Assembly: GCA_048882325.1 (NCBI GenBank)
Contig: JBHLRS010000001.1
Location: 149,657 to 194,773 of the forward strand
Length of the DNA stretch: 45,117 nucleotides
Source of the DNA: Candidatus Thorarchaeota archaeon
GTDB lineage: Archaea > Asgardarchaeota > Thorarchaeia > Thorarchaeales > Thorarchaeaceae
Direction of reading: 5' to 3'
Part shown: positions 1,138 through 17,008 of the stretch, piece after piece
How positions within the stretch are numbered: position 1 is the stretch's first letter
Layout of the letters: each line of letters opens with the position of its first letter
Program-made: the position numbers and the translations under genes
The notes under the pieces: generated by a model
Seen by the model: the letters and a program-made list of their open reading frames with translations, nothing else
Database searches by the model: none
Told to the model about the DNA's origin: nothing

Positions 1138-1449
1138 TGTGTTCACTCTATACTATCGAATGTTTACAAATTGAAACATTGAACATCGAAGTAATAGCAT
1201 ATATATTTCAATCTGTAACAAATGCATTTCTTTAAAGAACGAAATCTAACTATTATCGGAATACACAAAGGGATAAGGAGAAACAAGTCAGATACTGAAA
1301 GAGGCTTTGTTAATACCGATATTTTCTATTCGACACCAGTCATTATCTCGGTTCATCATGGGATTGCGCTCCCTCGCTAGGTTTTTATCTTACTATTTTC
1401 CAATCGACAGACTGTAAGCAGCTCTGTTCATGGGCTGGAGTGTGCACTC

Positions 1450-3390
1450 ATGGTCTTGAAACCAAAATACAATGAGAAACTCGCTGAGATATTTGGTGAC
1501 CGTCTACTTACAGAGAAGCATGAATTGGTTCTCTCGGCCTTAGACGTTGGGTCTTTACCAAAACAAGTGGGTTGGCTCATGAACACCACCCCTGACGCAA
1601 TTGTCCAACCGCTATCGCCGGAAGAGATCAGTGCTCTATACAAGTTCTGTCAGAAAACAAAGATTCCTTTAGTGCCGAGAGGAGCAGGGACCTCAGGTTA
1701 TGGAGGTGCCATACCTCGAAAGGGTGGAATTGTTGTTGACATACGTCGTATGAACAGAATCCTTGAAGTTGACGAGGAGAACATGACAGTCACTGTGGAA
1801 CCTGGTATCTCTTGGGCCAATCTTCAGTTTGAGTTGAATAGGAAAGGCCTGGATATTCGCTGCTATCCTTCCTCAGGTCTTTCAGCTACAATAGGTGGTT
1901 GGGTTGCTCAGGGAGGAGACGGTATCGGGTCTCTAAAGTATGGAAACGTCAACAAGAATGTTGACAAGATGGAAGTGGTTTTACCAACTGGTAAGATCGT
2001 CAAGACCCAAGACTGTGACTTATTCTGTGACACAGAGGGAATTCTTGGTATCATCACCAAGGTCACACTGAAGATCAAGACCCTCACTCCAATGAAGGTT
2101 GTCGTGTCCAGTTTCGAAGAAAATTATCAGATGGTGCTAGCAATCGAGAAGATACTCGAGGACGGACCGCTCCCCTTTACTATCAAGTTTGAAGAGTCCA
2201 AGTACACTGACCTCAAGAAGGCGATCTGGGAAGGTCATGGGCCATTCCCAATACCCGTGCATCATGGAACGATCATGGTTGTCTATGAGGGCGATGAGGA
2301 CGAGATAGAGGAGGGTGTAAGAGTAGTTGAGGAAGCCACCGAGATGTACAGGGGTGTCGTCTATGGCGAGGATGTCGCTGAACATGAATGGAATGACCGC
2401 TTCTACCCAATGAAAATCAAGAAGAAGGGACCGACCCTAGTTGTGGGTCAAGCATTCGCACCTTTAGAGAATCTCGCGGCTGTACTTGATGACTTCCAGT
2501 TCGAACAGGCTTCAGCAAAGGCTGGAATTGACGGATATGTAAACTCAAAGACCGGGGTTACCATGATGGGATACTTCCTGGAGGATGAACGAAGAAGATT
2601 CTACATGCTCTCATGGTCCCAGAGCTTTGTCATATTCAAGATTGCACAACGTCACGGCGGACACGTACACTCAACGGGAATCTGGTTCGCCAATTACGCT
2701 TCGCAGTACTTTGGCCAACAACGATTGGCACGTATTCGAGCTGCCAAAATCAAGTGGGACAAGAGGGAGATATCCAATCCCGGAAAGATTTTCGCGTATT
2801 GGCTCCCATTCATACTTAGGATTGGCAAGTACTTTATGTGGATATTCTTCGACCTATTCCGAAATGGCTTTGGTCGAATCGCACCTATACTTCTCAAGTG
2901 GCTGCAGAACGTGCCTCCTCTGAAGTGGATGCTCAGATGGGGCAGGGCTCACAGTCCATGGCCGATGCAATACGGCATCGGCTGCTGCATGGTCGACGGT
3001 GCCGCAGGAATTGCACCTCGATGGGACTTTGAGAGGTTCGGTATGCTCCCGCTCTTTGGGCCACGTCAGACCGATGTGCTGTGGATCTCAGGTTCACTGA
3101 CCAAGAAGATGGCTCCACGACTCAGACGTATCTATGAGCAGATGCCTGAGCCCAAGTACGTCATCGCATTCGGGCAGTGCGTCGCCTCTGGTGGTCTCTT
3201 CTGGGAAGGGTACAGTCTCCAAACACCACCTGACACTGTTGTGCCTGTGGATGTCTATCTTCCAGGCTGTCCTCCAAAACCTGCAGACTTCATCAGGGCG
3301 CACCTGATTTTGCAGAACAAGATACGTGCAGGGACAACCCACTGGCAGAAGAAATACGAGAATCAAGACGCGATGGGGATGATACAATGA
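1450..3390 (+). CDS. nuoB: Fusion of a GlcD/D-lactate dehydrogenase-like FAD-linked oxidoreductase (N-terminal ~446 aa) with complex I subunit NuoB (C-terminal ~150 aa)
   Basis: N-terminal PCMH/VAO-type FAD motifs: PDAIVQP, VPRGAGTS, ATIGGWVA, TEGILGIITKVTLK, NPGK. C-terminal NuoB motifs: GIGCCM (tandem Cys), PRQTDVLWISG, RIYEQMPEPKYVIAFGQC, DVYLPGCPP. One uninterrupted frame. Confidence 0.92.
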   Translation: MVLKPKYNEKLAEIFGDRLLTEKHELVLSALDVGSLPKQVGWLMNTTPDAIVQPLSPEEISALYKFCQKTKIPLVPRGAGTSGYGGAIPRKGGIVVDIRRMNRILEVDEENMTVTVEPGISWANLQFELNRKGLDIRCYPSSGLSATIGGWVAQGGDGIGSLKYGNVNKNVDKMEVVLPTGKIVKTQDCDLFCDTEGILGIITKVTLKIKTLTPMKVVVSSFEENYQMVLAIEKILEDGPLPFTIKFEESKYTDLKKAIWEGHGPFPIPVHHGTIMVVYEGDEDEIEEGVRVVEEATEMYRGVVYGEDVAEHEWNDRFYPMKIKKKGPTLVVGQAFAPLENLAAVLDDFQFEQASAKAGIDGYVNSKTGVTMMGYFLEDERRRFYMLSWSQSFVIFKIAQRHGGHVHSTGIWFANYASQYFGQQRLARIRAAKIKWDKREISNPGKIFAYWLPFILRIGKYFMWIFFDLFRNGFGRIAPILLKWLQNVPPLKWMLRWGRAHSPWPMQYGIGCCMVDGAAGIAPRWDFERFGMLPLFGPRQTDVLWISGSLTKKMAPRLRRIYEQMPEPKYVIAFGQCVASGGLFWEGYSLQTPPDTVVPVDVYLPGCPPKPADFIRAHLILQNKIRAGTTHWQKKYENQDAMGMIQ

Positions 3391-3959
3391 AGTTACAACA
3401 AGATAGTGATCCATATTGCATGCTGTTCTTGGGCCTTGTCATCCTGACAGCATTCATCTTCAACTTCGTCTATCTTGGTTTCTTGATACCTTCTGCATCG
3501 TTATTCATTGCAGGTTCTTTGAGCTCGTTGATTGCTGGAATGTCTATTGTAATGGTCTTCTGTCTGATTGGATACCTCAGACCCGAGAAGGGGAAAGGAA
3601 AGAACCTGATGTTCGGGCTATCAGTCTTAGTTGGATTTTTCTATGTGGTGTTTGTCGACCGGTTTGCGTTTGAAGTACCAGCGGCAGGTGACACTCTATA
3701 TCTAGCCTTCTGGGGACTTGGAGGTTGTATCCTTACAGCAGCAGGGTTCTCAATGATGCACAATCGCGAGGAGAGCTACTCTCCGGGAATCATGGACGTT
3801 AGTGCACTTCACTACGGTCCAGAACCGGAACCCGAGCCTGAGCCCGAGTTGGAAGAAGAGGTTGCAGTTGAACCAGAAGCAGAACTAACAATCGTGGAAA
3901 CCACTGAGGAGGTAGAAACTCCCAGTGAACCAGCTACTGATGTTGCTTCTGAAGAGTGA
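3387..3959 (+). CDS. Hypothetical ~4-TM membrane protein with Pro/Glu-rich acidic tail
   Basis: Four hydrophobic segments and a PEPEPEPEPELEEE tail. ATGA overlap with the stop of the nuoB fusion. Confidence 0.8.
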   Translation: MKLQQDSDPYCMLFLGLVILTAFIFNFVYLGFLIPSASLFIAGSLSSLIAGMSIVMVFCLIGYLRPEKGKGKNLMFGLSVLVGFFYVVFVDRFAFEVPAAGDTLYLAFWGLGGCILTAAGFSMMHNREESYSPGIMDVSALHYGPEPEPEPEPELEEEVAVEPEAELTIVETTEEVETPSEPATDVASEE

Positions 3960-3969
3960 ATACAAATAT

Positions 3970-4335
3970 CTACTCGTTGAGCCAATTGAATGCAGCAAAT
4001 CCGATGAGCAGACCAAATGCCATTATTGCAAACAGGATTATTGCTGTGAAGAGTGTATACATGGTGAATAAGAGGTAGACATGAATACCTCCGAGAATCC
4101 CTGTGAGCATTGTAAGTCCCACTCTACTGGATCGAGTATTGGCCATAGCGAATCCGAATGAAGCAACTACGAAAAGCATTCCACCCAGAACAAGGAACCA
4201 ATAGAAGAGAATATTCGTTACGACGACTGTTGTGGTCATGAGTGTCCAGAAATAGACTCCCAGTAGTGCCATCCCAATCAATAATGCCAGATAATAGAAG
4301 AATGTGCCTTCTTCGCCACGAACCAAGTGTATCAC
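3970..4335 (-). CDS. Hypothetical small ~4-TM membrane protein
   Basis: 121 aa, almost entirely hydrophobic helices. Convergent on 3387-3959 with a 10-nt gap. Start codon uncertain (GTG or TTG). Confidence 0.7.
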   Translation of the reverse strand: MIHLVRGEEGTFFYYLALLIGMALLGVYFWTLMTTTVVVTNILFYWFLVLGGMLFVVASFGFAMANTRSSRVGLTMLTGILGGIHVYLLFTMYTLFTAIILFAIMAFGLLIGFAAFNWLNE

Positions 4336-4696
4336 CTGAAATCATAGAGTAGTAAACTGAGATGTTGTTCCGTGCCCCGTGATATATAACTGCTTTGAGT
4401 CTCCAAAAACCCGAATGGTTTTTATCACGGTATTTTTCTACGGCTTCAAGTTTCAGAGTAGATGGTCGGACAATAAACCTCAAAATGGAGTTCTAAAATG
4501 GCCCCTAGAATCCAATTCCGTCAGGTTATTGTCCTGTCATTACGCTGATAACTTAGCACAGAAGGAACCGTGAACCAATGAACAGCAAAACTCGATGTCT
4601 GACTCCTTTTGTCGGTATCTTCAATAACCGCCGTGTTCCGTTCGATGCTATAAATCTCGATACTTGTAAAGTAAAATCAGAGGACGGTCTCAAACT

Positions 4697-5164
4697 ATGA
4701 TGCAGGTGGAAGATAGATTATTTGCCCTTTTCATCCCTGTTTTGATTTGGGCTCTTTTGGCAGTGGTCCTTGTTGTTGTGATGCTCCTTGCATCCTGGGT
4801 ATTGCGACCGCATGTCTTACAAAACTCTGAGAAGACATCTTCCTATGAATGTGGTGAGGAACCTGTGGGACCTGCTCGCATCTCGTATCCGTATAATTAC
4901 TTCATCTATACTGTCCTTTTCGTGGTTGTAGATGTGATGGGGGCATTTCTCTGGCTCATCACTGCTTCAGACATACTTTGGGAAAGTGGTGCTGAAACTG
5001 TTCTGTGGCAACTCACAATTTTCGTTATGATTGTCATGGGCGGAATTGCTTATGTCATGAGAAATCTCCCTGATGCAGCGTTGGACGGGAAGGAAACCCT
5101 TGAAGTCTACCGAAAGGCCAAGGCTGAGAGAGAGCAAGAACAGCATATTGTAGGGGGTCACTGA
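4697..5164 (+). CDS. nuoA: Complex I-like subunit A
   Basis: Three TM helices, KTSSYECGEEP loop, YTVLFVVVDV. Confidence 0.92.
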   Translation: MMQVEDRLFALFIPVLIWALLAVVLVVVMLLASWVLRPHVLQNSEKTSSYECGEEPVGPARISYPYNYFIYTVLFVVVDVMGAFLWLITASDILWESGAETVLWQLTIFVMIVMGGIAYVMRNLPDAALDGKETLEVYRKAKAEREQEQHIVGGH

Positions 5165-5166
5165 TC

Positions 5167-5817
5167 ATGCTACAAAGTGTAAGTGAATTTCTTGATGCAA
5201 TGGAACCAGTAGAGTTTCTTCTGATTGCAGGAGTAGTGTTAGTACTTGCCTATCTTGCCCTCGAACACAAAGAGATAGTCTATGCAGCATTCTTCTTTGG
5301 CTTTATGGCGTCCTTTGTGGCTGGGTTCTTCCTCCTCCTTGAAGCACCTTTCATTGCAGGGATGCAGATTGCCGTCTATACTGGTGGTATTAGTGCACTC
5401 ATTATTTTCGCAGTACTACTTCTTCCGAGAGCACAAGATTCCTCTCTGGAAATATTTACAACTCCTCGAAAACGTCAGGTAGGACTCCTGATGGCTGCCA
5501 TGGTAATGATACTTTCAGGTATCCTTGCATTGATTTTCCCATGGGCTGAGTCATTTGAACAGTCCTTAATTGAGGTATCAAACGACCTGAATGAACTTGC
5601 TAGGTGGCTATGGTCAGACGGTGGCATCTATGTTCAGATGATTGGTCTGATCATGATCACATCATTGGTTGGTGCCATTGCACTTCTGAAGATGGACAAG
5701 GCTGAACAACTATCTTCAATTAAAGGTGAGTTTGGGATAGAAGCTGTTCTCGAATTTGAAGAATTGGAATCTGTCGATGAGGAATCGACGCCTATAGATG
5801 AGGAGGTGGATGACTGA
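5167..5817 (+). CDS. nuoJ: Complex I-like subunit J
   Basis: APFIAGMQIAVYTGGISALIIFAVLL motif; five TM helices; acidic tail. Confidence 0.88.
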   Translation: MLQSVSEFLDAMEPVEFLLIAGVVLVLAYLALEHKEIVYAAFFFGFMASFVAGFFLLLEAPFIAGMQIAVYTGGISALIIFAVLLLPRAQDSSLEIFTTPRKRQVGLLMAAMVMILSGILALIFPWAESFEQSLIEVSNDLNELARWLWSDGGIYVQMIGLIMITSLVGAIALLKMDKAEQLSSIKGEFGIEAVLEFEELESVDEESTPIDEEVDD

Positions 5818-6128
5818 TGGTCCCACTATCTTGGTATCTTGTCCTCTCATTCATGATGATTGGCTTAGGAGGTTATGGCATGATGGTCAAGAGAAACCTC
5901 ATCAGGATTCTCATTGGTGCTGAGATCATGGGTAATGGAGTCAACATTGCTCTTGTAGCTATGTCTCTCTATAGCCCCTCGTTTTCATTCACTGGTCAAG
6001 GATTGATAATACTCATCATTTCTGTTGCAGCAGCACATACTGCCTTGGCTCTAGTTCTGATGCTGATGTACAACCGTCGTTATGATACGGTGGATCTTGG
6101 ACAACCAATCAAAACGGAGGAAACATAG
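5817..6128 (+). CDS. nuoK: Complex I-like subunit K
   Basis: KRNLIRILIGAEIM...GQ...VAAAHTALAL; three TM helices. The second conserved Glu (AAAE) is His here. Confidence 0.92.
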   Translation: MVPLSWYLVLSFMMIGLGGYGMMVKRNLIRILIGAEIMGNGVNIALVAMSLYSPSFSFTGQGLIILIISVAAAHTALALVLMLMYNRRYDTVDLGQPIKTEET

Positions 6129-6635
6129 ATGTCAACAATTGGCAGAGCCATAATCAACAAAGTTCCTGAAGTGACTTCCAATCCGTTGGGTGAAAATAAG
6201 ATAGAGCTAGTTGTTCCGGTTGAGAAGATTCGAGATGTTGTCACGATTATTGAGCAGGAGCTTGAAGATGCATTACCCGAATCTGTGTTTGGTGTAGACC
6301 TCGAGAATGACAAATATGAACTCATCTACATCTTCTGGTCGTGGTCCACTCGGCAGCTAGTTCAACTAAGAGTTGCTCTCGAGGGAGAGAAACCTGAGAT
6401 TGAGAGTGTTTGTGACATATTTCCTGGACTCGAATGGCATGAAAGAGAATTCAGAGAGATGTTTGGAATAGACGTTAGGAATCACCCAGACCCACGGCTC
6501 TTTTTACTACCAGATGAACTCGATGGAGCATATCCAATGCGCAAGCGGTTCAAGACAGACCAAAGTAGACTTCAGGAGACCGGCATTGCACCTCCAAAAC
6601 CTCGACCTAAACCGGAAGGAGGTGACAGCCAGTGA
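6129..6635 (+). CDS. nuoC: Complex I-like subunit C
   Basis: WHEREFREMFGI...HPDPR...YPMRK motif. Confidence 0.92.
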   Translation: MSTIGRAIINKVPEVTSNPLGENKIELVVPVEKIRDVVTIIEQELEDALPESVFGVDLENDKYELIYIFWSWSTRQLVQLRVALEGEKPEIESVCDIFPGLEWHEREFREMFGIDVRNHPDPRLFLLPDELDGAYPMRKRFKTDQSRLQETGIAPPKPRPKPEGGDSQ

Positions 6636-7768
6636 GCCCTGACATTCTTGACGAAGCAATGGAAATCTGGTTCGGTCCTCAGCATGTATCTGCTCACGGT
6701 TGGGCCACCAAATTGACCTTAGTGGGTGACTACATCGTGGAGTGTGACCCGAATGCCGGTTACTTCCACAGGTCTGCTGAGAAAGTCCTTGAGTTCAAGA
6801 ACTTCAGACAAGGTTCACTTGTTCTAGAAAGGATGTGCATGCTTGAAGCATTCCTTGCTGAGCATCCCTATGTTGCGGCTGTCGAGAAAATCGCTGAGAT
6901 AGATGTTCCTGAACGTGCCAAAGTCATGAGGACAATCATGATGGAATTGTCACGACTTCACAGCATCCAGTTCTGGTGGGGCCAATTCAACGCTGAGTTA
7001 GGATTCTTCACAATGGCACTCTGGCCATGGGTTGACCGAGAATATTCACTAGATGTATTTGAAGAGCTTACGGGCTCACGACACACGGTATCCTTCTCGA
7101 CTCCAGGTGGTGTGAAGTACGACTTTAATGACAAATTCATGGACAGACTCCACAGAGCTGTTGATCGATTCGAAGATCGCTTGGCTAAATTCAGAGATAT
7201 GCAGATGGGTAGTCCGACATTTCGAGCGAGAACTGAGGATATCGGTCTCTATGATTATAAACAAGGACTCAAGTGGGGACTGAGTGGTCCTCCGATAAAA
7301 GCATGTGGAATTCCTATGGATCTGAGAAAGGATGATCCAGATCCGAATCTTGCGTATGATATGGTTGACTTTGAGGTTCCTATTACTGAGAATCCGGAGC
7401 ATCCTGGTCAGAGTGACGCTCTCGACAGAATGGAACAGAGGTTCAAGGAAGCTGAGGTTGCTGTCGATATTGTGAAGCAGCTCCTACCCCAGATTCCTGA
7501 TGGTCCAATAGTAGATCCAAAAGCTCGGGGAAAGGCAAACCGACTTCCTGAAGGAGAAGCCTATGCTCGAATTGAAGGAACACGTGGTGTCACTTCATTA
7601 TGGCTTAAAACACAAGAAAAGGCACAGACTGCGTATCGAGCAAAGATACGCGGACCATGCATCGCCTCATACTATGCATTGAAAGATTTGGTGCCCGGTT
7701 CGAAGTTTGCTGACTTTATTGTAATATTTGGAAGCCTAGATCCTTATCCGGGGTGGTGGGATCGCTGA
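6632..7768 (+). CDS. nuoD: Complex I-like subunit D (no NiFe-binding CxxC pairs)
   Basis: GPQHVSAHG, GYFHRSAEK, ELSRLHS, EELTGSR, PGGV, DLRK, EGTRG, RGP, terminal DR. GTG start overlaps the nuoC stop. Confidence 0.9.
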   Translation: MSPDILDEAMEIWFGPQHVSAHGWATKLTLVGDYIVECDPNAGYFHRSAEKVLEFKNFRQGSLVLERMCMLEAFLAEHPYVAAVEKIAEIDVPERAKVMRTIMMELSRLHSIQFWWGQFNAELGFFTMALWPWVDREYSLDVFEELTGSRHTVSFSTPGGVKYDFNDKFMDRLHRAVDRFEDRLAKFRDMQMGSPTFRARTEDIGLYDYKQGLKWGLSGPPIKACGIPMDLRKDDPDPNLAYDMVDFEVPITENPEHPGQSDALDRMEQRFKEAEVAVDIVKQLLPQIPDGPIVDPKARGKANRLPEGEAYARIEGTRGVTSLWLKTQEKAQTAYRAKIRGPCIASYYALKDLVPGSKFADFIVIFGSLDPYPGWWDR

Positions 7769-7779
7769 TGGGAGGTGTC

Positions 7780-8928
7780 ATGTTGCAGTTCGACTTCTTC
7801 GCTTGGCTTTCTGGAATTCCTCAATGGCTTGAGGATTTCCTCTTGCACTTGTGGACAATTGCAAAAGGCATAATCTGGTGGATTTGGGGAATCATCCAAT
7901 GGATCTGGAGCGCAATCTTTGTTCCTAGGAATTTCTTCTTCCTTTTCAGAGCAGTTCTCTTTCCGGGGCTTGTATTTGTTATCATGGCTCTGATATGGGC
8001 TGTTTGGTTTACACGCAAACTTTGGGGCAGAATCCAAGACAGACGTGGTCCAGTTCATATGGGTAAATATGGAGGACTTCAGCTCTTTGCTGATGCCATC
8101 AAATTGATTGCAAAAGAAACCATAATTCCTGAAAAAGCCAAACGTTGGATGTTCAGGTTCCTTCCAGGACTCCTGCTAGTGATTGTCCTATTGCCTTTCG
8201 CCTTCATCCCGTGGGACACTGTTTCCGCGGTAGATGGAGGATGGGCAATTGCTGACCTCTCAGTCAGTCTTGTACTTGTGTTCGCATTCCTGACAGCTGT
8301 ACCAGTAATCGCTCTGATGGCAGGATGGGTCAGTGGGTCGAAATACACGTTGATTGGTGGATTTAGAGCTGCTAACAACCAGTTCGCTGCAGAGATACCA
8401 ATGATCATCTCCACAATCGGTTGTGCTTTCCTAGCTCGTTCACTAAGTGTGTATGAAATCTCAATGGGTCAGACGGGTATTTGGTATGGAATCCTTCTCC
8501 CGATCAATCTGGCAACTTTCTTGGTTGCTGCAATCGCATCTGTGGGAATCTTCCCCTTCGATGCTCCTGTTGCAGATTCCGAGATCATCTTTGGTTGGAG
8601 GACTGAATACACTGGCATCTACTTCACCCTGACTTATTTTGCAGAGTTTGCTGAGCAAATGCTATACTCGGCTCTCATCGTTGCACTATTCTTGGGTGGT
8701 CCGAATGGGTTCACATTCCTTCCAGGTCCAGTCAACTTCATCATCAAGTTTCTGATCACTTTCTTCTTCTTTGTCCTGGTGAGTTCATCGTTCCAGAGAC
8801 TCAGACAGGACCAGATTGTCCACTACTGCTGGAAGTACCTACTTCCACTAGCAATACTGAACGTCATCGTCATCATGTTCGCGGTAGTCTACTTCCCTGG
8901 ACTGATGGCTGCATTGGGGGTTGGTTAA
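7780..8928 (+). CDS. nuoH: Complex I-like subunit H
   Basis: RKLWGRIQDRRGP, GGLQLFADAIKLIAKE, SKYTLIGGFRA, PFDAPVADSE, TEYTG, RLRQDQ. Start moved to ATG 7780 behind a GGAGGTG RBS-like motif. Confidence 0.92.
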   Translation: MLQFDFFAWLSGIPQWLEDFLLHLWTIAKGIIWWIWGIIQWIWSAIFVPRNFFFLFRAVLFPGLVFVIMALIWAVWFTRKLWGRIQDRRGPVHMGKYGGLQLFADAIKLIAKETIIPEKAKRWMFRFLPGLLLVIVLLPFAFIPWDTVSAVDGGWAIADLSVSLVLVFAFLTAVPVIALMAGWVSGSKYTLIGGFRAANNQFAAEIPMIISTIGCAFLARSLSVYEISMGQTGIWYGILLPINLATFLVAAIASVGIFPFDAPVADSEIIFGWRTEYTGIYFTLTYFAEFAEQMLYSALIVALFLGGPNGFTFLPGPVNFIIKFLITFFFFVLVSSSFQRLRQDQIVHYCWKYLLPLAILNVIVIMFAVVYFPGLMAALGVG

Positions 8929-8931
8929 ACA

Positions 8932-9363
8932 ATGGGATTCTTCAGCGTACTAGGTGACTGTTTTCAGATACTGAAACACACATTCAGACAAGTCTTCATG
9001 AGACCGTTCACGTACTTCTACCCCTTTGAAGACCGGATATATCCGGAGCGGACAAGAGGCAGACACATCCACGTTCGTGAGAACTGCACAGCCTGTTCAC
9101 AGTGTGTCAAAGCCTGTCCAGTAATTGCTATCCGGATGGACAAGGAGGATAAGATGTTCGAGAAGGACTGCGCTTTGTACTTTGACTATACTCGCTGCAT
9201 TTTCTGTGGTCTATGTACTCAAGCTTGCAAGTTTGATGCTCTATTCCATACTCCAATTGTCGACTTGAGTGAGGGTGACCGTGAAGATCTCCTATATGGA
9301 CCAGACAAGATAGAAACACTTGACCGAGACCCACTGAAGTGGCGAGGGAGGGAGTTCCGTTAA
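8932..9363 (+). CDS. nuoI: Complex I-like subunit I (2x[4Fe-4S])
   Basis: TYFYPFE, RGRH, CTACSQCVKACP and CIFCGLCTQACK. Confidence 0.93.
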   Translation: MGFFSVLGDCFQILKHTFRQVFMRPFTYFYPFEDRIYPERTRGRHIHVRENCTACSQCVKACPVIAIRMDKEDKMFEKDCALYFDYTRCIFCGLCTQACKFDALFHTPIVDLSEGDREDLLYGPDKIETLDRDPLKWRGREFR

Positions 9364-10911
9364 ATGCAGCTCTTCGATCTTGCATCTATCCCATATGCAG
9401 CACTATCTCTTGCAGTGCTTTTCATTGGAGGTCTCCTGATCTATGCCCTCAAGGACAATTTCGCACACTCTGCAGGAAAGGTAGCTGTCGGATTTTCTGG
9501 AATCGCATCCCTCTTGATGGTCTATCCGTTCTACTTAATATTCTCAGACCCAGAAACACCCTATACTGAATACGCTACATGGTCTGGACTGTTAGAGCAA
9601 TTCGGTCTCAAGCTGGATGGTGTCGCCTTTCCAATCACATTTGCAGTTGTAGTTCTTGGTTTCCTATCAGTAGTCTATGCAGTTGGTTATACAGAGCATA
9701 GTGAGAACAAAGCCACCTTCTTCGCAAATCAGCTCTTCTTCCTGATGGGTATGCAATGGGTCACCCTAGCCACGAATTTAATCGAATTCTTCATCGCTTG
9801 GGAACTAATGCTAGTACCTAGCTACTTCCTAATCCTATTCTGGGGTCTGCCTGAGACCCGGAAGCGGACTGCCATGAAGTTCTGGCTGTACACACAGTCT
9901 GGTGCAGTGTGTATCATGGTTGGTTTTGGCATTCTGTACTCTCTAACTGGTTCTTTTGACTTGGCACTGATTCAACCAGCTATAGCAACTGTTCCTCTAT
10001 ATGCTCTGGTCCCAGGTCTTGGTATCACCTTTGAAACCTTGTTGAAAATTATCTTCCTTCTCCTTGCTGCTGGTTTTCTCGTAAAGATGGCAGTGTTCCC
10101 AATCCATTGGTGGCTCCCACCAGTTCACGCAGAGGCTCCTACGCCAATCTCAGTCCTGCTGTCTGGTGCGATGATTGAAACCGGTGCATATGCGTTAGTA
10201 CGTTTTGGGTCGCTCACACTATCGGTTGCTGCATATCAATTATCGATTTTTGTAGCTGGCTTGGGAGTTATCACCATGTTCTATGGTGGGTTCATGGCAC
10301 TGGCCCAGATTGACATTAAGAGACTCCTCGCATATTCGTCCGTTTCACAGATGGGATATGTGCTCTTCGCTTTGGGTGTCTACGCACCAACGGGTGCGGC
10401 AGGTGGAATGTTCCATCTCATCAATCACGCCTTCTCGAAGGGTCTCTTGTTTATGACCGCAGGTGCTGTCATTCATCAGACTGGACTACGTGACATCACA
10501 AAGATGGGCGGTCTCTCAAACAAGATGCCCATCACTGCTTTCGCAGCAGCCATAGGTATGATGAGCATTGCTGGTAGTCCACCTCTTTCAGGATTTGCCA
10601 GCGAGTGGATGATGTTCCTTGGTGGTTTTGAACGTGCAATTGATGGAGTCGCAATCGCGAGCCTCCCGTTCCTCATATTGACCATCATCGCGGTGTCAAG
10701 TTCAATCCTCAGTGCAGGCTACATGCTACGCTTCTTCTGGAAGGTCTTCCTAGGTCCTCATCCTGATGAGCTAGAAGACGTCAAGGAGAGTTCAAACTCC
10801 ATGACCATACCGATGATCATACTTGGAGTTCTCATTGTAATCTTTGGAATATTCCCAGGACTGGCACTTGATGTCATTGTCCCGGCAGTACAAGGAATCG
10901 TATACCCGTGA
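9364..10911 (+). CDS. nuoM: Complex I-like antiporter subunit M, copy 1
   Basis: WELMLVP, VKMAVFPIHWWLPPVHAEAP, KRLLAYSSVSQMG, GFASEW (NuoM-type Glu in TM12). No NuoL-type C-terminal extension. Confidence 0.82.
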   Translation: MQLFDLASIPYAALSLAVLFIGGLLIYALKDNFAHSAGKVAVGFSGIASLLMVYPFYLIFSDPETPYTEYATWSGLLEQFGLKLDGVAFPITFAVVVLGFLSVVYAVGYTEHSENKATFFANQLFFLMGMQWVTLATNLIEFFIAWELMLVPSYFLILFWGLPETRKRTAMKFWLYTQSGAVCIMVGFGILYSLTGSFDLALIQPAIATVPLYALVPGLGITFETLLKIIFLLLAAGFLVKMAVFPIHWWLPPVHAEAPTPISVLLSGAMIETGAYALVRFGSLTLSVAAYQLSIFVAGLGVITMFYGGFMALAQIDIKRLLAYSSVSQMGYVLFALGVYAPTGAAGGMFHLINHAFSKGLLFMTAGAVIHQTGLRDITKMGGLSNKMPITAFAAAIGMMSIAGSPPLSGFASEWMMFLGGFERAIDGVAIASLPFLILTIIAVSSSILSAGYMLRFFWKVFLGPHPDELEDVKESSNSMTIPMIILGVLIVIFGIFPGLALDVIVPAVQGIVYP

Positions 10912-10921
10912 GGTGATTAAG

Positions 10922-13237
10922 ATGTTGCTAGGTCTACCATACTATCTGATCCTCGTCATTCCACTTGGTGGCTCACTGCTAGTACCCCTCTTTGGAAGAT
11001 ACAGTGTGAAACTTAGAGACTGGGCTCCAGCAATCTTCATGGGTATCACTATGGTCCTCTGTTGGTCCCTCCTACCTGATATTGGACATGGCAATCCAAG
11101 TTGGGACTGGATTAATATTGTCATCAATGGAGAGGATGTTCTTGTTGTTCCATTTGGAATGCTCCTCGACCCCCTCTCTGTGATCATGGCTATTTTGGCA
11201 AGTACACTCTGTTTCCTCATCTATGTGTATAGCACCGAATACATGGCTCATGAAGGAGACCGTAGTCGATTCTTCTTCCTGATGTTAGCCTTCGGTGGTG
11301 GTATGCTTACACTTGTTCTAAGCGACAACCTACTGATTGCGTTTATTGGTTGGGAGATAATGGGCTTTTGCAGCTACGGTCTCATTGGATTCTGGAACGA
11401 CAAGAGGAATCCTCCAGAGGAAGACCCGACTGGATACGAGCAGACTAACCCAATTCTCCAATGGGAGAAAGAGGGAGACTACAACTCCTATGCAGGTACA
11501 AAGGCGTTTATCGTCACGAGAATTGGTGACGCGTTTATGCTAGGTGGTATTTTACTACTGTTCATGTTCACAGGCACATTCCTCTTCTCAGACTTGATGG
11601 ATCCTTTGACTGCTTCTAACGATTGGTGGGTCAACATGTCCTCCGCAGGTGTCTTGATTCCAGCGCTACTTCTCATCTTCTTGGGCGCAATTGGCAAGTC
11701 CGGACAGTTCCCGTTGCAGGTGTGGCTCCCAGAGGCTATGGCAGGTCCCACAAGTGTTAGTGCATTGATTCATGCTGCCACCATGGTGAAGGCTGGAGTC
11801 TATATCACCGCACGGTTCCTAGTCACGATAGTGAGTGCATCAGGAATCGAGGGAGAGATTGCGTCGCCAAGCACTGGTATCACAGCAGCCCAAGCTCTGG
11901 GCTTTGAAGCCGCACTGACCTTTTTCATAATTGTTTCAGTGATTGGTGCAATTACCGCGTTACTGACCGCGACAATGGGCATGGTGTCCAATGAGCTAAA
12001 ACAGATACTCGCTTTCTCAACTTTGTCACAGCTCGGATACATGATGTTGGCGCTCGGAGTGGGTGGTGTTCTACAAGCAGTTCCCGCACTGCATGAAACC
12101 TATAGTCATGCGTATTTGAGTGGCGTGTTACACGTTGTTTCACATGGAGCATTCAAGGCACTTTTGTTCCTCGCATCAGGAGCTGTAATTCATGCTGTGC
12201 ATACGAAATACATCTCAAAGATGGGTGGCCTTCGAAAGCACATGCGGAAGACATTCATAGTCATGTGGGTAGGTGTCCTCGCACTAGCTGGAATCCCACC
12301 ATTCTCGGGATTCTGGTCAAAAGACTCTATCATCGAATACACCTATGAGCTTGCTGCTCACTGGTACAATCCACTTGGATGGGTTCTATTCCTTTTTGCA
12401 GTGCTTGCTGCAGCCTGTACAATCTTTTACAGCTTCAGGTTGATGGGTTTAACGTTTTACGGACCATCAGAACATAGCTCTCACGACTCACATGATTCAC
12501 ATGAATCACATAGTGAAGAGAGTGAAGAGAGTGAAGAGAGTGAAGAGAGTGAAGAACATGAAGACGAAGTGCATCCCAACGATCATCATCAGACACCGCA
12601 TGATCCAGGACCAGCAATGATGGTGCCTCTTTACATCTTGGCAGCTTTCACAATCCTCGCCTTTGTTGTTTTTCCGTTCATCCAGAACATTGCACTTGGT
12701 GAGCCTGAAGCGTGGAGCGATATCATGTCCGAGATGATTCTTGCGAAGCTTACTATGCCTGGAATAATCCCGTTTGCGATCACCCTGGGGGCGTTAGCGG
12801 TTGGAGGTATTCCTGGTTACGTGATTTACATTAGGAACGCTGACCGACCGAACGCTATTATCGGTGACACTGGAATTAGACGCAAGATGTACAACCTCCT
12901 GAAGCACAGGTGGTACATCAATGAGGGATATCACTGGCTTCTCAACAAGTTTCTCAACTTTGCTGAGATGTGGCGTGTCAATGTGGACGACAAGGTCATT
13001 GATGGCATTGACTTCAAGTCTGCCGATGCAGCGATTGCCATATCAACAAAGGTGCGATGGTTCGACGACAATGTAGTCGACGGATTTGCAGAAGGTGTGT
13101 CCACACGGAGTGTAAGGACTTCTGAAACCGGGCTCGCAGAAACTCAGACTGGAAGAATCAATGACTATGTCAGCGTTGTGATGTTTGGAATTGGGATATT
13201 GGTCTTGCTAGCGCTGATTTCACTGGGGGTAATATAG
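10922..13237 (+). CDS. nuoL: Complex I-like antiporter subunit L with extended lateral helix
   Basis: WEIMG, RIGD, GKSGQFPLQVWLPEAMAGPT, HAATMVKAG, STLSQLG, HGAFKALLFL, FWSKD, then a C-terminal helix and QTG plus a final TM. Start placed at ATG 10922 behind GAGGTGA. Confidence 0.93.
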   Translation: MLLGLPYYLILVIPLGGSLLVPLFGRYSVKLRDWAPAIFMGITMVLCWSLLPDIGHGNPSWDWINIVINGEDVLVVPFGMLLDPLSVIMAILASTLCFLIYVYSTEYMAHEGDRSRFFFLMLAFGGGMLTLVLSDNLLIAFIGWEIMGFCSYGLIGFWNDKRNPPEEDPTGYEQTNPILQWEKEGDYNSYAGTKAFIVTRIGDAFMLGGILLLFMFTGTFLFSDLMDPLTASNDWWVNMSSAGVLIPALLLIFLGAIGKSGQFPLQVWLPEAMAGPTSVSALIHAATMVKAGVYITARFLVTIVSASGIEGEIASPSTGITAAQALGFEAALTFFIIVSVIGAITALLTATMGMVSNELKQILAFSTLSQLGYMMLALGVGGVLQAVPALHETYSHAYLSGVLHVVSHGAFKALLFLASGAVIHAVHTKYISKMGGLRKHMRKTFIVMWVGVLALAGIPPFSGFWSKDSIIEYTYELAAHWYNPLGWVLFLFAVLAAACTIFYSFRLMGLTFYGPSEHSSHDSHDSHESHSEESEESEESEESEEHEDEVHPNDHHQTPHDPGPAMMVPLYILAAFTILAFVVFPFIQNIALGEPEAWSDIMSEMILAKLTMPGIIPFAITLGALAVGGIPGYVIYIRNADRPNAIIGDTGIRRKMYNLLKHRWYINEGYHWLLNKFLNFAEMWRVNVDDKVIDGIDFKSADAAIAISTKVRWFDDNVVDGFAEGVSTRSVRTSETGLAETQTGRINDYVSVVMFGIGILVLLALISLGVI
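12479..12556 (+). repeat. In-frame 9-bp tandem repeats in nuoL (SHD/SHE units, then SEE x5)
   Basis: AGTGAAGAG x4 perfect (12512-12547) plus AGTGAAGAA, preceded by TCTCACGAC/TCACATGAT/TCACATGAA. Confidence 0.9.
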
Positions 13238-13238
13238 A

Positions 13239-14864
13239 ATGCAAGTAGATTTTGCCATAAACATCTTGAACTCGTTGCCATTCGGACCACTGGGATTCAT
13301 GCTACTTCTCCCCGTCGTTGCTGCCTTCATAGCTTATTTTGCAGGAAAAGGCGCTAGAGTGATTGCGCTTCTTGTAACCGCTGTTGAACTTGGGCTCTCA
13401 GCCTTGCTTGTCCTTGGTGTCAATCCAATGGCAATCGAGCAGACCACAATACAAAATGCTGGGATGCAATTCGTCGATGTCTTTGTTATGGGCACCATTC
13501 CAATTGGAGAGGACCTAACAACAAACTTTCAATTCATACTGGGAGTTGATGGATTATCAGCAGTGATGCTTCTATTGTCAAACCTAGTTGTGTTCATTGC
13601 AGCCATCAGTTCGAACCACATTCACAAGTCTGAAGGATTCTACTACTCCCTATTCCTACTGCTTCAGGTTGGTCTAATGGGTGTGTTCATGTCATTGGAT
13701 TTGATCGGCTTTTTCATCTTCTGGGAATTGGTTCTCATCCCAATGTTCTTCATCATTGGAAGATGGGGGGAGGAAGGCTGTGAACATGCAGCTGTGAAGT
13801 TCTTCATCTATACTCATCTTGGCTCAGCAGTTATGCTTGTTGCATTCTTTGTGATATACCTGATTGCTGGAGCTGAAAGAAACATCTACACCTTTGCATT
13901 GATTCAGCTCTCTGAAACTGGTCCTGAAGGTTTGAGAACACTCCTACCAACACTGGCACCAATGGTCCAGATCGGGTTTGCATTAGCCATCTTCATGGGT
14001 GCAGGAGTCAAGTTGCCAGTCTGGCCTTTACACAACTGGCTTCCATGGGCTCATGTTAAAGCTCCAACACCAGGTTCTGTTATACTCGCAGGTATCCTAT
14101 TGAAGATGGGCGGTTACACATTCATTCGACTTGGACTCTGGCTCGTGCCCAGTGCCTTTACACGATTGAGTATACCTTTCGCAGCTTTAGCCATCTTCAC
14201 TTGTATCTATGCAGCATTTACTGCAATGGCCCAGACCGATGTGAAAAGTCTCGTAGCGTACACATCAATCAACCACATGTCATGGGTTTTACTTGGTGTA
14301 GCTGTGGCATCATTCGCCATTGGTCTTGATCCTGCAGTTGCAGAGAACCTTCGCTTCATCAATGCCGCGAATCTTGCTCTTCAAGGTTCAATCTTCATGA
14401 TGTTCAGCCACGGAACAATCATCTCTGTAATGTTCATAATGGCCGGGCAGCTCAAATACTCTGCAGGCACACGACAGATTCCTGACATACAAGGTCTCAT
14501 GAACAAGGCACCTCGAATGTCAGCAATCCTTATTCTAGCATCATTTGCAGCCTTTGGTCTACCTGGGTTCAGTGGCTTCATTGCTGAAGCCCTTGTCATA
14601 TTTGGTTCAGTGGTTGTTTATCTCTGGGCTGGACTCATAACGTTCGGAATCTTTGTGACTGTCGGCTATGTTCTCTGGATGTTAAACCGAATGGTGTTCA
14701 GTGATCCGGATCCAGAGAAAGAGGTGTCTGAGGCACCATGGAGCGACCTCATTGCACCAATACTCATGATGATACCAGTCATCCTCTTGGGTGTATGGCC
14801 TGACCTGGTTCTTGACTTCACACAAGCTGTTGTTAACTTCATCATAGGAGGTATTGCACCATGA
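13239..14864 (+). CDS. nuoM: Complex I-like antiporter subunit M, copy 2
   Basis: FWELVLIPMFF, KFFIYT, VKLPVWPLHNWLPWAHVKAP, AGILLKMGGY, GLPGFSGFIAE. Confidence 0.92.
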   Translation: MQVDFAINILNSLPFGPLGFMLLLPVVAAFIAYFAGKGARVIALLVTAVELGLSALLVLGVNPMAIEQTTIQNAGMQFVDVFVMGTIPIGEDLTTNFQFILGVDGLSAVMLLLSNLVVFIAAISSNHIHKSEGFYYSLFLLLQVGLMGVFMSLDLIGFFIFWELVLIPMFFIIGRWGEEGCEHAAVKFFIYTHLGSAVMLVAFFVIYLIAGAERNIYTFALIQLSETGPEGLRTLLPTLAPMVQIGFALAIFMGAGVKLPVWPLHNWLPWAHVKAPTPGSVILAGILLKMGGYTFIRLGLWLVPSAFTRLSIPFAALAIFTCIYAAFTAMAQTDVKSLVAYTSINHMSWVLLGVAVASFAIGLDPAVAENLRFINAANLALQGSIFMMFSHGTIISVMFIMAGQLKYSAGTRQIPDIQGLMNKAPRMSAILILASFAAFGLPGFSGFIAEALVIFGSVVVYLWAGLITFGIFVTVGYVLWMLNRMVFSDPDPEKEVSEAPWSDLIAPILMMIPVILLGVWPDLVLDFTQAVVNFIIGGIAP

Positions 14865-16399
14865 TGCTTCAACTCGTAGATATCGCGAACCAAATTCGTG
14901 AATTACTTGAACCATTAAAGGATGTGTTACTTGACATAGTTCCTGCAAGCTGGCTCATGTCACTTCCTGCACTGACACTGGTTCTCTTCGCAATCTTGGC
15001 ATTAATCGTCGGTATGCGGTATAATCCGCTAGGACTAAGCTTCGTTGGTGTCTTACTTGCAGCTCTTGAGATGATAATCCTGAACCCTCTTGATTCTGAG
15101 ATTGCTGCCATTACAGGAGGAGTTTCGTTTGGACAGTTTGCCCGAGATCCTATGGCTGACTTGTTCATCTATATTATTCTGATAGTTGGTTTTCTGGTCT
15201 TGATGTCCTCAACTCTCTATGGGGGTGACAAGGGGCCATACAACTTCATGCTATTGATATCCTTCGCTGGCGCCATATGGGTCGTGATGGCTACTGATCT
15301 CGTGGGACTCTTTTTAGCGTGGGAATTGATGTCAACACCAACATACATACTTGTAGCATTAGGACCTGGTCGAGAAGCAATTGATGGAGCGACCAAGTAC
15401 TTTGTCATGGGACTTCTTGCAACAATGATGATGGTGTTTGGTATAGCCATAATATACGGGGTCACTGGTCAAACCAATCTTGTGGAGGTTGCAACTTATG
15501 TTGATGGAGTCTGGACTGGATCGACTCCAAATGCGGCATACACGATCCTTCTTGCAGTGGTCTTATTCATCGTTTCATTCGGATTCAAGGTGGGTGTATT
15601 CCCAGGATGGCAATGGGTGCCTGATGCTTATGCCAGTGCAGATGGGAGTGTTACAGCATACCTTGCCGGAGGTTCCAAGAAAACGGGAGTTGGTGCATTG
15701 ATGAGAATTCTCGTTGTAGGATTTGTCATCGCTCAGACTCAATGGACAGTCGTCATTGTTGGAGTGGCAATCCTCACAATGATTATTGGGAATGTACTCG
15801 CACTCGCTCAAAGGGACATCATGAGGATGCTTGCGTATAGTAGTGTTGCCATGATGGGATATCTCTTCATTGGCCTAGCATCAGCTATGAATCCCGTTGA
15901 TGTTCCGAGTACGACTGCATATACTCTAGGTGTAGGTGCAGCTCTCTTCATGGCATTCACCCATGCAATCATGAAGACCCCCGCATTCATTTTAGTGTGG
16001 GTTCTATCAATCGCTCTTTCGAAAAGAATTACTTATGATGACCTTGCTGGACTTAGCAAGAGAGCTCCACTTGCAGCGGGGCTATTCACCATTCTAATGT
16101 TATCCTTAGCTGGAATGCCTCTCACAGTCGGGTTCTATTCAAAACTGCTACTCTTCCTGAGTGCGGCAGCTGCAGGTATGTGGTGGCTCGCGCTGATTGG
16201 ACTCCTTAACTCAGTGTTCTCTTTGGGCTACTATTTGCGAGTCATAAGGTACGCCTATATGGAAAAAGCCACGGATGATACTAGTATCAAGTTGCCAACG
16301 GTTCCACTTGTGGCGGTAGTTCTCTGTGTCATCGCTGTGATTGGGCTATTCTTTGCTCCGTGGATAATCTTAGATTATGCGTATGCAGCTGTCCCATAA
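14861..16399 (+). CDS. nuoN: Complex I-like antiporter subunit N
   Basis: WELMSTPTYIL, KYFVMG, GFKVGVFP...WVPDAY, RMLAYSS, SLAGMPLTVGFYSK, YYLR. Confidence 0.92.
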   Translation: MMLQLVDIANQIRELLEPLKDVLLDIVPASWLMSLPALTLVLFAILALIVGMRYNPLGLSFVGVLLAALEMIILNPLDSEIAAITGGVSFGQFARDPMADLFIYIILIVGFLVLMSSTLYGGDKGPYNFMLLISFAGAIWVVMATDLVGLFLAWELMSTPTYILVALGPGREAIDGATKYFVMGLLATMMMVFGIAIIYGVTGQTNLVEVATYVDGVWTGSTPNAAYTILLAVVLFIVSFGFKVGVFPGWQWVPDAYASADGSVTAYLAGGSKKTGVGALMRILVVGFVIAQTQWTVVIVGVAILTMIIGNVLALAQRDIMRMLAYSSVAMMGYLFIGLASAMNPVDVPSTTAYTLGVGAALFMAFTHAIMKTPAFILVWVLSIALSKRITYDDLAGLSKRAPLAAGLFTILMLSLAGMPLTVGFYSKLLLFLSAAAAGMWWLALIGLLNSVFSLGYYLRVIRYAYMEKATDDTSIKLPTVPLVAVVLCVIAVIGLFFAPWIILDYAYAAVP

Positions 16400-16417: not shown

Positions 16418-17008
16418 CTACCTCTGGCGGCCAAGTCTTTCTTCTTCTTTTCTTACTGCGGTTTCAACACACTTCGTAAACATCTTCTCGATGTTTTCAC
16501 CTGTCTTAGCTGAGGTTTCAATATACTCAATGTCTTGCCAATGGCTGAACATCTCTCCAGCTGCGGGTGGAACAACTCGATCCTTCCTATCAACTTTGTT
16601 TGCCACTAAGATAACAACTGCATCTGGTGAGACTGCAATGAAATTGTCATACCAAGATGCACAGTTGAGAAATGTTGGAGGTCTGGTTACATCATATACG
16701 AGAAACGCAATAGATGCTCCTACCATGTATCTAGAGCGGAGATCCTTGTATGTGGGCTGACCCGCTAGGTCCCATAACACTATTTGAGCTGTGGCCTTTT
16801 CTCCTGGATAGACTTCGATATCTACATTTTTCACTGCGATGTTTGTCCCAATTGTTGCTTTATACGACTCACCGAAGCTGTTCTGTGTGTACCTCATGAT
16901 GCAACTTGTTTTGCCTACAGCCCCGTCACCCAATGCTACCATTTTTAGCACATATGCGGGACCTTCTGCTTCCAATACATACCCTTCCTTTGACGGAAGA
17001 TGGTGCAC
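16418..17008 (-). CDS. Rab-like small GTPase (Ras superfamily)
   Basis: G1 GDGAVGKTS, G2 YKATIG, G3 WDLAGQ, G4 NKVD, G5 ETSAK. No C-terminal Cys prenylation motif. Confidence 0.93.
   Translation of the reverse strand: MHHLPSKEGYVLEAEGPAYVLKMVALGDGAVGKTSCIMRYTQNSFGESYKATIGTNIAVKNVDIEVYPGEKATAQIVLWDLAGQPTYKDLRSRYMVGASIAFLVYDVTRPPTFLNCASWYDNFIAVSPDAVVILVANKVDRKDRVVPPAAGEMFSHWQDIEYIETSAKTGENIEKMFTKCVETAVRKEEERLGRQR

Follow-up and report, generated by a model that had tools for sequence, protein, structure and literature searches.

A GlcD-like flavoprotein fused in frame to the NuoB subunit of a complex I-like pump in Thorarchaeota

How electrons enter and leave the relatives of complex I that lack an NADH module is an open question of archaeal and anaerobic bioenergetics, and the usual answers, in which ferredoxin docks on NuoI or HdrD docks on Fpo-like complexes, rest largely on inference. 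In the eleven-subunit Fpo-like complexes of Methanothrix and Methanomassiliicoccales, the gene cluster is devoid of NuoEFG/FpoF, an HdrD-like protein with Fer4 and CCG domains is associated, and ferredoxin is the presumed donor at NuoI (PMC9478090, PMC4153887); ferredoxin as the redox partner of complexes without the NADH module has also been proposed in an Asgard survey (10.1101/2024.07.04.601786). A second group of described systems comprises the flavoproteins GlcD/GlcF, LDHD, LctD and YdiJ, in which a fold of FAD_binding_4 and FAD-oxidase_C goes together with a Fer4 and CCG partner. YdiJ, which carries flavin adenine dinucleotide (FAD), 4Fe-4S and CCG parts in one chain, is an experimentally characterised D-2-hydroxyglutarate dehydrogenase whose physiological acceptor is unknown (PMC9504171). 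The gene described here has features of both groups: it encodes a flavoprotein domain fused in frame to NuoB, the subunit that holds cluster N2, and lies in a 45,117-nucleotide stretch of DNA (the window) from a Candidatus Thorarchaeota archaeon (GenBank assembly GCA_048882325.1, contig JBHLRS010000001.1, positions 149,657 to 194,773).

The reading frame at 1450-3390 is uninterrupted from an ATG start and gives a protein of 646 amino acids (aa), in which Pfam recognises FAD_binding_4 (residues 48-186, 2e-42), FAD-oxidase_C (216-447, 1e-7) and Oxidored_q6 (PF01058; 524-617, 1e-22). The NPGK motif that closes the flavoprotein occupies residues 443-446 (nucleotides (nt) 2776-2787), the tandem CC of NuoB residues 512-513 (nt 2983-2988), and the GQC and GCPP motifs begin at nt 3172 and 3265, respectively. 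The initial annotation, which was made from the bare sequence and proposed a flavoprotein of the GlcD/D-lactate dehydrogenase (D-LDH) fold fused in frame to an intact complex I-type NuoB, is upheld by the domain scan, with all three domains in one chain and the motifs at these places.

The fusion is genuine and conserved, and is not an assembly artefact. A word-indexed search recovered about 46 protein clusters with the same three Pfam domains (644-667 aa, 73-92% identity), most of them named Thorarchaeota and some residing on contigs of 0.5-3.2 Mb. Full-length matches free of stop codons were found in 28 of 200 sampled Asgard genomes, all 28 in the window's own Thorarchaeal family, where they spread over at least 12 genera, and the fusion was absent from the other 26 families among the about 200 genomes sampled. 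Among 1.84 billion representative proteins clustered at 50% identity, one single cluster bears the fusion. The relatives are thus not all encoded as two unlinked genes. At the junction itself, contigs from four runs of two studies span 2359-2938 and 2910-3115 without an indel or a joint. One genome, G152, carries the fusion gene in two frames, split at residue 434/435 (L025, G152:C5:90000-100000), as might be expected if the gene were an assembly chimera or a read-through artefact of two separate genes; however, its nuoD is likewise in two frames, split at about residue 275, and because both genes are split in the same assembly the interruption is read as an assembly frameshift error. Frameshift sequencing errors probably explain both split genes, and with 28 other genomes giving uninterrupted full-length matches, a junction bridged by contigs of two studies and zero junction indels across 37 clusters, the artefact explanation is vanishingly improbable.

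The C-terminal part is a NuoB of the complex I type. It exceeds the NCBIfam NuoB cut-offs (TIGR01957, 163.9 versus 142.7; NF005012, 172.9 versus 116), and its closest solved relatives are NdhK/NDUFS7/Nqo6 (about 1e-40) as against about 1e-27 for MbhJ/MbsJ. As in NuoB/Nqo6/PSST (NDUFS7)/NdhK, the N2 ligand set contains the tandem cysteines, and nuoA, C, D and H-N are co-encoded; C512, C513, C577 and C607 are invariant in 37 aligned fusions. The fusion and the nearest standalone NuoBs read GCC at the site where the Mbh-like NuoBs of sister genera read CxxC, so that the distinction drawn beforehand between complex I-type (CC) and hydrogenase small-subunit (CxxC) proteins is also seen within this data set. 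The AlphaFold2 (AF2) model of the NuoB part is poor, with a predicted local distance difference test score (pLDDT) of 36-75. Unlike NuoB/Nqo6/PSST/NdhK, the fused NuoB is preceded by a 478-residue flavoprotein at its N-terminus; unlike NuoB/NdhK, its gene is separated from nuoA by two small membrane-protein genes, and no standalone copy was found in the window genome.

Behind the fusion gene follows an operon for the rest of the pump, and together they encode NuoA, B, C, D, H, I, J, K, L, M and N, with nuoB present as the fusion; Pfam searches of the window detected no separate nuoB and no nuoEFG or fpoF in the operon. The order nuoA-J-K-C-D-H-I is kept in eight of ten loci from other genera, none of which has its own nuoB. 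The four antiporter genes are conserved in relatives, the 797-aa subunit exceeds the NuoL cut-off (TIGR01974, 453 versus 407.5), and the combination of four antiporter subunits with a long NuoL resembles reported complex I variants with an extra NuoM. The whole genome (3.6 Mb, 93% complete) contains one Oxidored_q6 match, which is the fusion, and one NuoH, which is that of the window, and its sole NuoF-like gene is not linked to the operon but located on a different contig (C8). Because the fusion carries the only NuoB, the only NuoH is encoded in the window and the operon brings no nuoB of its own, the pump would depend on the fused NuoB, and the gene content is best explained if the C-terminal part serves as the only N2-cluster subunit of a complex I-like pump in its genome.

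This pump does not qualify as a [NiFe] group 4 hydrogenase, since NuoB has CC and NuoD is without the two CxxC pairs, and no NiFe large subunit or NiFe hydrogenase was found in the 93%-complete genome. Of the two NiFe motif positions in NuoD, the N-terminal one has a single Cys and the C-terminal one has none; the loop His (beta1-beta2) is retained, and Met takes the position of the quinone Tyr. Its best solved match, over the full length, is MbsL (6u8y_L, 3.8e-57), with which it shares the single Cys where NiFe hydrogenases have CxxC. From the MBS and MBH complexes of Thermococci, the locus differs in its complex I-type NuoB, the retained loop His of NuoD, the NuoL/M/N-like arm and the four antiporter subunits. 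Judged by its residues, the active-site region of NuoD does not appear to be a clean fit to complex I, hydrogenase or MBS. Genera g4, g5, g11 and g13, sister genera that lack the fusion, encode several hydrogenase small subunits and a short CxxC-type NuoB beside divergent NuoH and NuoD, which make up an Mbh-like cluster; a second cluster of this kind is also present in several fusion-bearing genomes. In g13, the single NuoH belongs to the divergent Mbh-like cluster and the NuoD is 30% identical to that of the window. The nearest standalone NuoBs come from ordinary nuoA-nuoB clusters of other Asgard families.

The fold of the N-terminal 446 residues is modelled with a pLDDT mostly above 85, and the best Foldseek match is mouse LDHD (8jde; TM score 0.86 by target, 22% identity, E 4e-31), followed by AGPS and LctD. 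Most of the nearest relatives outside Thorarchaeota are single-chain FAD+FeS+CCG proteins of 34-40% identity. Compared with GlcD, LDHD and YdiJ, the domain fails the GlcD and YdiJ equivalog cut-offs (for YdiJ, NF049975, 82.7 versus 1350, and over the FAD-binding part only), has an amphipathic tail, is fused to NuoB and misses the Glu of the GEHG motif, whose Glu-His pair we take, from the LDHD literature, to be the metal/substrate site; distant members of the subfamily have P-Y at the E-H position. These features are best explained by a branch of FAD enzymes that does without the usual metal-site Glu. It is very unlikely that the domain is a degenerate, structural or regulatory appendage devoid of a redox role: the missing Glu and the weak FAD-oxidase_C match (1e-7) would agree with such decay, but FAD_binding_4 is matched over its full length at 2e-42, 152 of the 446 flavin-domain columns are invariant in the 37 fusions, the fold is predicted with high confidence, and the cysteine motifs of the iron-sulfur (Fe-S) partner protein described below are all invariant. 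A metagenomic protein of 867 aa from the same flavoprotein branch (P0123, 40% identity) carries an NrfD/PsrC-type membrane subunit at its N-terminus, and appears to be another joining of this branch to a membrane redox module. P0130 and similar relatives with N-terminal extensions were also considered as NrfD fusions and rejected, as they are tandem FAD-FAD proteins; NrfD occurs only in P0123.

Between the two domains, the initial annotation had seen a linker of about 55 residues that would hold the flavin domain at the membrane surface. Its amphipathic rather than transmembrane (TM) character stands, with a Kyte-Doolittle maximum over 19 residues of 1.3, which is below the TM threshold, and a high hydrophobic moment. 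It is not purpose-built, because the first part is kept as a tail in unfused relatives of the flavoprotein and the last part aligns with the N-termini of standalone NuoBs. On the one hand, about 27 residues (about 479-505) share homology with the N-terminal helix of standalone NuoBs, the closest of which come from two other Asgard families. On the other hand, the remainder is a tail common to the flavoprotein's unfused relatives: two unfused Thorarchaeal proteins of genus g13 (498 and 499 aa, 54-56% identical) have the same hydrophobic tail after NPGK and end a few residues past PPLKW, already inside the region of NuoB homology, relatives at 35-40% identity have a short and weaker form of the tail too, and two paralogs in the window genome have a similar terminal motif after two true TM helices. 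AF2 predicts helices at 451-472 and 474-486. No indel occurs within residues 447-505 of the 37 aligned fusions, and mean pairwise identity among them is 80% in the tail and 86% in the NuoB N-terminal region, compared with 74% in the flavin domain. The joining segment can thus be described, from alignment and prediction, as the C-terminal amphipathic helix of the flavoprotein family set end to end with the N-terminal helix of NuoB, both native to their proteins, and it may reasonably be placed at the membrane surface.

The flavin domain seems to have kept an Fe-S partner of its own. The premise that GlcD-like domains usually come with FeS/CCG partners applies to this genome, in which 13 of the 15 FAD_binding_4 genes adjoin a CCG/Fe-S gene. 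In genus g13, a gene for a 408-aa Fer4_8+CCG protein immediately precedes that of the unfused flavoprotein. Genes for a UbiA-family protein, a polyprenyl synthase and a geranylgeranyl reductase come before the Fer4_8+CCG gene, and one for an ADP-forming acyl-CoA synthetase comes after the flavoprotein gene. The order of these neighbours is unchanged in the window genome: the ortholog of the CCG protein, with 65% identity to the tandem partner in g13, is encoded 4.9 kb upstream of the fusion gene on the other strand, a 1481-aa PKD-domain gene is inserted between the two, and the acyl-CoA synthetase gene is located beyond the nuo operon (20833-22221). Among 60 genomes of the family, every fusion-bearing genus sampled has a CCG ortholog (65-88% identical), and in at least 16 genomes, covering most of these genera, it is divergently adjacent to the fusion gene across a gap of about 200 bp. 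The CCG protein contains two 4Fe-4S motifs and two CCG domains, and its cysteine motifs are invariant. Unlike in YdiJ, the FeS and CCG parts here form a separate protein.

Complex prediction with residues 1-490 of the fusion and the CCG protein reached an interface score (ipSAE) of 0.86, with 0.00 for the best control; among solved complexes, 58 of 80 attain this mark, and among mismatched pairs 2 of 110. At least 98% of contacts are shared between runs, pLDDT of the partner is at least 90, and in the predicted interface the FAD domain is contacted by residues 27-102 of the CCG protein, its ferredoxin-like Fe-S part. The prediction supports binding of the CCG protein to the flavin domain of the fusion. 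The proposal that NuoB replaces the usual FeS partner of such flavoproteins is not borne out, given a CCG ortholog that is retained upstream and predicted to bind. Four more FAD_binding_4 and CCG gene pairs form a cluster 17-32 kb upstream of the window (G000:C1:117788-132203), and at the C-terminus of two of the flavoproteins there (572 and 573 aa), the amphipathic motif of the family is combined with two true TM helices.

The surroundings of the CCG gene suggest a link to quinones. The UbiA-family protein encoded beside it exceeds the menA cut-off (TIGR00751, 129 versus 102), in at least 12 genomes, among them those of g13 with the unfused form, the menA-like gene adjoins the CCG gene, and another few kb upstream there are ccmF and a gene for a multihaem cytochrome c. 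Combined with the analysis of the junction, this leads us to prefer, at little better than an even chance, that a flavoprotein/CCG dehydrogenase working at the quinone level is tethered one to one beside the N2/quinone-site subunits of the pump, forming a hard-wired supercomplex. In this arrangement, the flavin domain would pair with its own HdrD/GlcF-like subunit, encoded upstream beside the menA-like prenyltransferase, and both terminal helices at the junction would lie at the membrane surface. The autonomous flavoprotein/CCG dehydrogenase would act on a prenylated quinone-type carrier, dehydrogenase and pump would exchange electrons via that carrier, and ferredoxin would probably feed or drain the pump at NuoI, which has been proposed for other complexes without an NADH module.

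The supercomplex is favoured because both halves exist autonomously, because they are joined end to end through helices of a membrane-surface kind and because the menA-like gene is linked. As to autonomy, the flavoprotein/CCG pair occurs without a fusion-type pump in g13, and NuoB occurs in nuoA-nuoB clusters elsewhere; as to the quinone link, most of the nearest relatives outside Thorarchaeota carry FeS and CCG domains within one chain, and an NrfD fusion occurs in one relative. Several observations weigh against this reading. The 93%-complete genome yielded no synthesis route for a quinone head group, with MqnA/D, MenD and an above-cut-off MenB all missing. The lack of the quinone Tyr in NuoD, together with its best match to MbsL, means that the acceptor of the pump may not be a quinone. 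The interface between FAD domain and CCG protein could carry over from the about 13 paralogous pairs in the genome, and close cousins of a true partner also pass the complex-prediction test. Finally, the FAD domain stays under the GlcD equivalog cut-offs (TIGR00387, 145 versus 568; NF008408, 100 versus 897) and has V406-H407 where the glycolate oxidase/D-LDH structure 9qgz has the E-H of GEHG, the Glu being lost.

Some of the same evidence can be read as a direct-wire input head, in which the flavoprotein/CCG pair would replace NuoEFG and be wired by Fe-S clusters into NuoI/N2, and oxidation of an organic substrate would directly drive reduction at the NuoD site and ion pumping. The operon is without nuoEFG or fpoF, the fused partner is the N2 subunit itself and the sole NuoB, the junction is fixed in length and more conserved (80-86%) than the flavin domain (74%), and the CCG protein brings two 4Fe-4S motifs, predicted to be docked on the FAD domain. 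However, in solved complex I structures the N-terminus of NuoB lies at the membrane interface, far from where the cluster chain is entered at NuoI, the flavoprotein/CCG pair is found without the pump in genus g13, and a donor at the level of a 2-hydroxyacid would probably give little driving force for a pump with four antiporter subunits; we consider the direct-wire head unlikely. The tentative proposition that the flavoprotein and the CCG protein together form a head electrically connected to the pump, which would be a third type of complex I head after NuoEFG and FpoF, is one that we lean against while granting it real weight. If true, an Asgard archaeon would couple an organic acid, or in the reverse direction an organic acceptor, directly to ion translocation by way of cluster N2.

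Electrons could also run the other way, with the fused module as their exit. Ferredoxin would then feed NuoI, and electrons would leave N2, directly or via a captive quinone, for the CCG protein and the flavin, with a 2-oxoacid, a fumarate-like compound or a disulfide as the acceptor; the whole would be an ion-pumping fermentative reductase in the style proposed for the Fpo-like complex with HdrD. The best NCBIfam matches of the CCG protein, all below cut-off, are TfrB, GlpC and HdrB-type reductase subunits, the quinone Tyr is missing in NuoD, and with no NiFe hydrogenase detected in the genome, ferredoxin electrons would need a different sink. Fpo-like complexes without FpoF are likewise proposed to oxidise ferredoxin and to pass the electrons to Hdr-type enzymes (PMC9478090, PMC4153887). 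The locus shares with them the absence of NuoEFG/FpoF and the associated HdrD-like protein, but the hand-over proposed there is to HdrD or HdrDE, whereas the association here is covalent, via the flavoprotein fused to NuoB; the host, an Asgard archaeon, is not a methanogen, the pump has an additional antiporter subunit, menA is linked, and the HdrD-like protein has an FAD dehydrogenase domain as its partner, so that heterodisulfide need not be the substrate. An exit module of this kind seems quite improbable to us, as the dehydrogenase fold of the flavin domain normally works in the oxidative direction, and the menA linkage and the upstream multihaem cytochrome and ccm genes suggest a chain from quinone to the outside.

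A redox island just upstream of the window (L027, G000:C1:133000-151200) contains genes for a multihaem cytochrome c (c554/c552-like), ccmF, a geranylgeranyl reductase, a polyprenyl synthase, the menA-like prenyltransferase, two PNPOx-like proteins, the CCG/Fe-S protein and the 1481-aa PKD-domain surface protein. Its gene content suggests a quinone-to-outside electron path in a Thorarchaeon in which no NiFe hydrogenase was found.

With regard to origin, the 37 fusions form a single clade in a quick tree, and the g13 pair is sister to it (Shimodaira-Hasegawa-like approximate likelihood ratio test values of 94 and 100); this topology fits a single fusion event. The unfused form of g13 may predate the fusion or may have lost the NuoB part, and the quick tree is compatible with both. 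Its last about 15 residues align with the NuoB-homologous start of the fusion, and this match, although short, hints that the unfused form was truncated from the fusion.

No description of the fusion was found in the literature, in a search that did not reach subscription-only papers, and public records label the protein 'NADH-quinone oxidoreductase subunit NuoB' or 'hypothetical'. A complex I homologue without an NADH module and with a covalently attached flavin/HdrD-like module is apparently new. The default annotation as 'NADH-quinone oxidoreductase subunit B' conceals two-thirds of the protein. In this lineage, which is close to the ancestry of eukaryotes, the association is fixed in the polypeptide, with the flavin/HdrD-like module covalently tied to the N2 subunit, and the fusion offers a defined, expressible construct for asking whether electrons are exchanged with the pump directly or through a quinone. 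The features of the locus are collected in Table 1.

Table 1. Coordinates of the fusion gene, its parts and the adjoining pump genes within the window
Feature	Position	Strand	Description or basis
Conserved upstream element	1380-1399	+	CTCGCTAGG plus T-rich TATA-like box, 51-70 nt 5' of the fusion start codon
Fusion gene	1450-3390	+	646 aa: flavoprotein domain, amphipathic tail and NuoB
FAD domain, aa 1-446	1450-2787	+	D-lactate/2-hydroxyacid dehydrogenase fold; NPGK at end
Flavoprotein-family amphipathic C-terminal tail, aa 447-478	2788-2883	+	Predicted helix 451-472; kept in unfused relatives
NuoB N-terminal helix region, aa 479-505, to WGR/SPWP motif	2884-2964	+	Alignment with standalone NuoBs
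NuoB core with cluster-N2 cysteines C512, C513, C577, C607	2965-3390	+	Oxidored_q6, NuoB cut-offs
ORF190	3387-3959	+	Conserved, 4 TM, acidic PE-rich tail; overlaps fusion stop (ATGA)
m121	3970-4335	-	Conserved, 4 TM, between ORF190 and nuoA; protein conserved in relatives
nuoA	4697-5164	+	Pfam
nuoJ	5167-5817	+	Pfam
nuoK	5817-6128	+	Pfam
nuoC	6129-6635	+	Pfam
nuoD	6632-7768	+	Pfam
nuoH	7753-8928	+	Pfam
nuoI	8932-9363	+	Pfam
Four antiporter-like subunits (515, 797 (NuoL-type), 541 and 512 aa)	9364-16399	+	Proton_antipo_M in all four

Two small genes separate the fusion gene from nuoA, here and in nearly all relatives. Orthologs of ORF190 follow the fusion gene in nine of ten loci examined and have a conserved N-terminal acidic motif with one Cys, and the m121 protein is kept at the same place in eight loci (26-74% identity). 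Neither has a Pfam or NCBIfam match, and their neighbours in a protein atlas were unnamed or at chance level alone (0.88-0.90). ORF190 and m121 may be extra subunits or assembly factors of the pump. The upstream element, CTCGCTAGG with its T-rich part, recurs 50-77 nt 5' of the fusion gene in loci from several genera and is likely its putative promoter. A look-alike that agrees at 16 of 20 positions is found at 4417-4436, in the intergenic region between m121 and nuoA, and the two may represent a shared promoter or a generic TATA-like box alone.

Directly after the last antiporter gene, the window contains a gene for a Ras-family small GTPase (16418-17008, minus strand), which is found at the same place in at least two other loci (L028 and L029). 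An ORF of 1839 aa occupies 27004-32523 on the minus strand.

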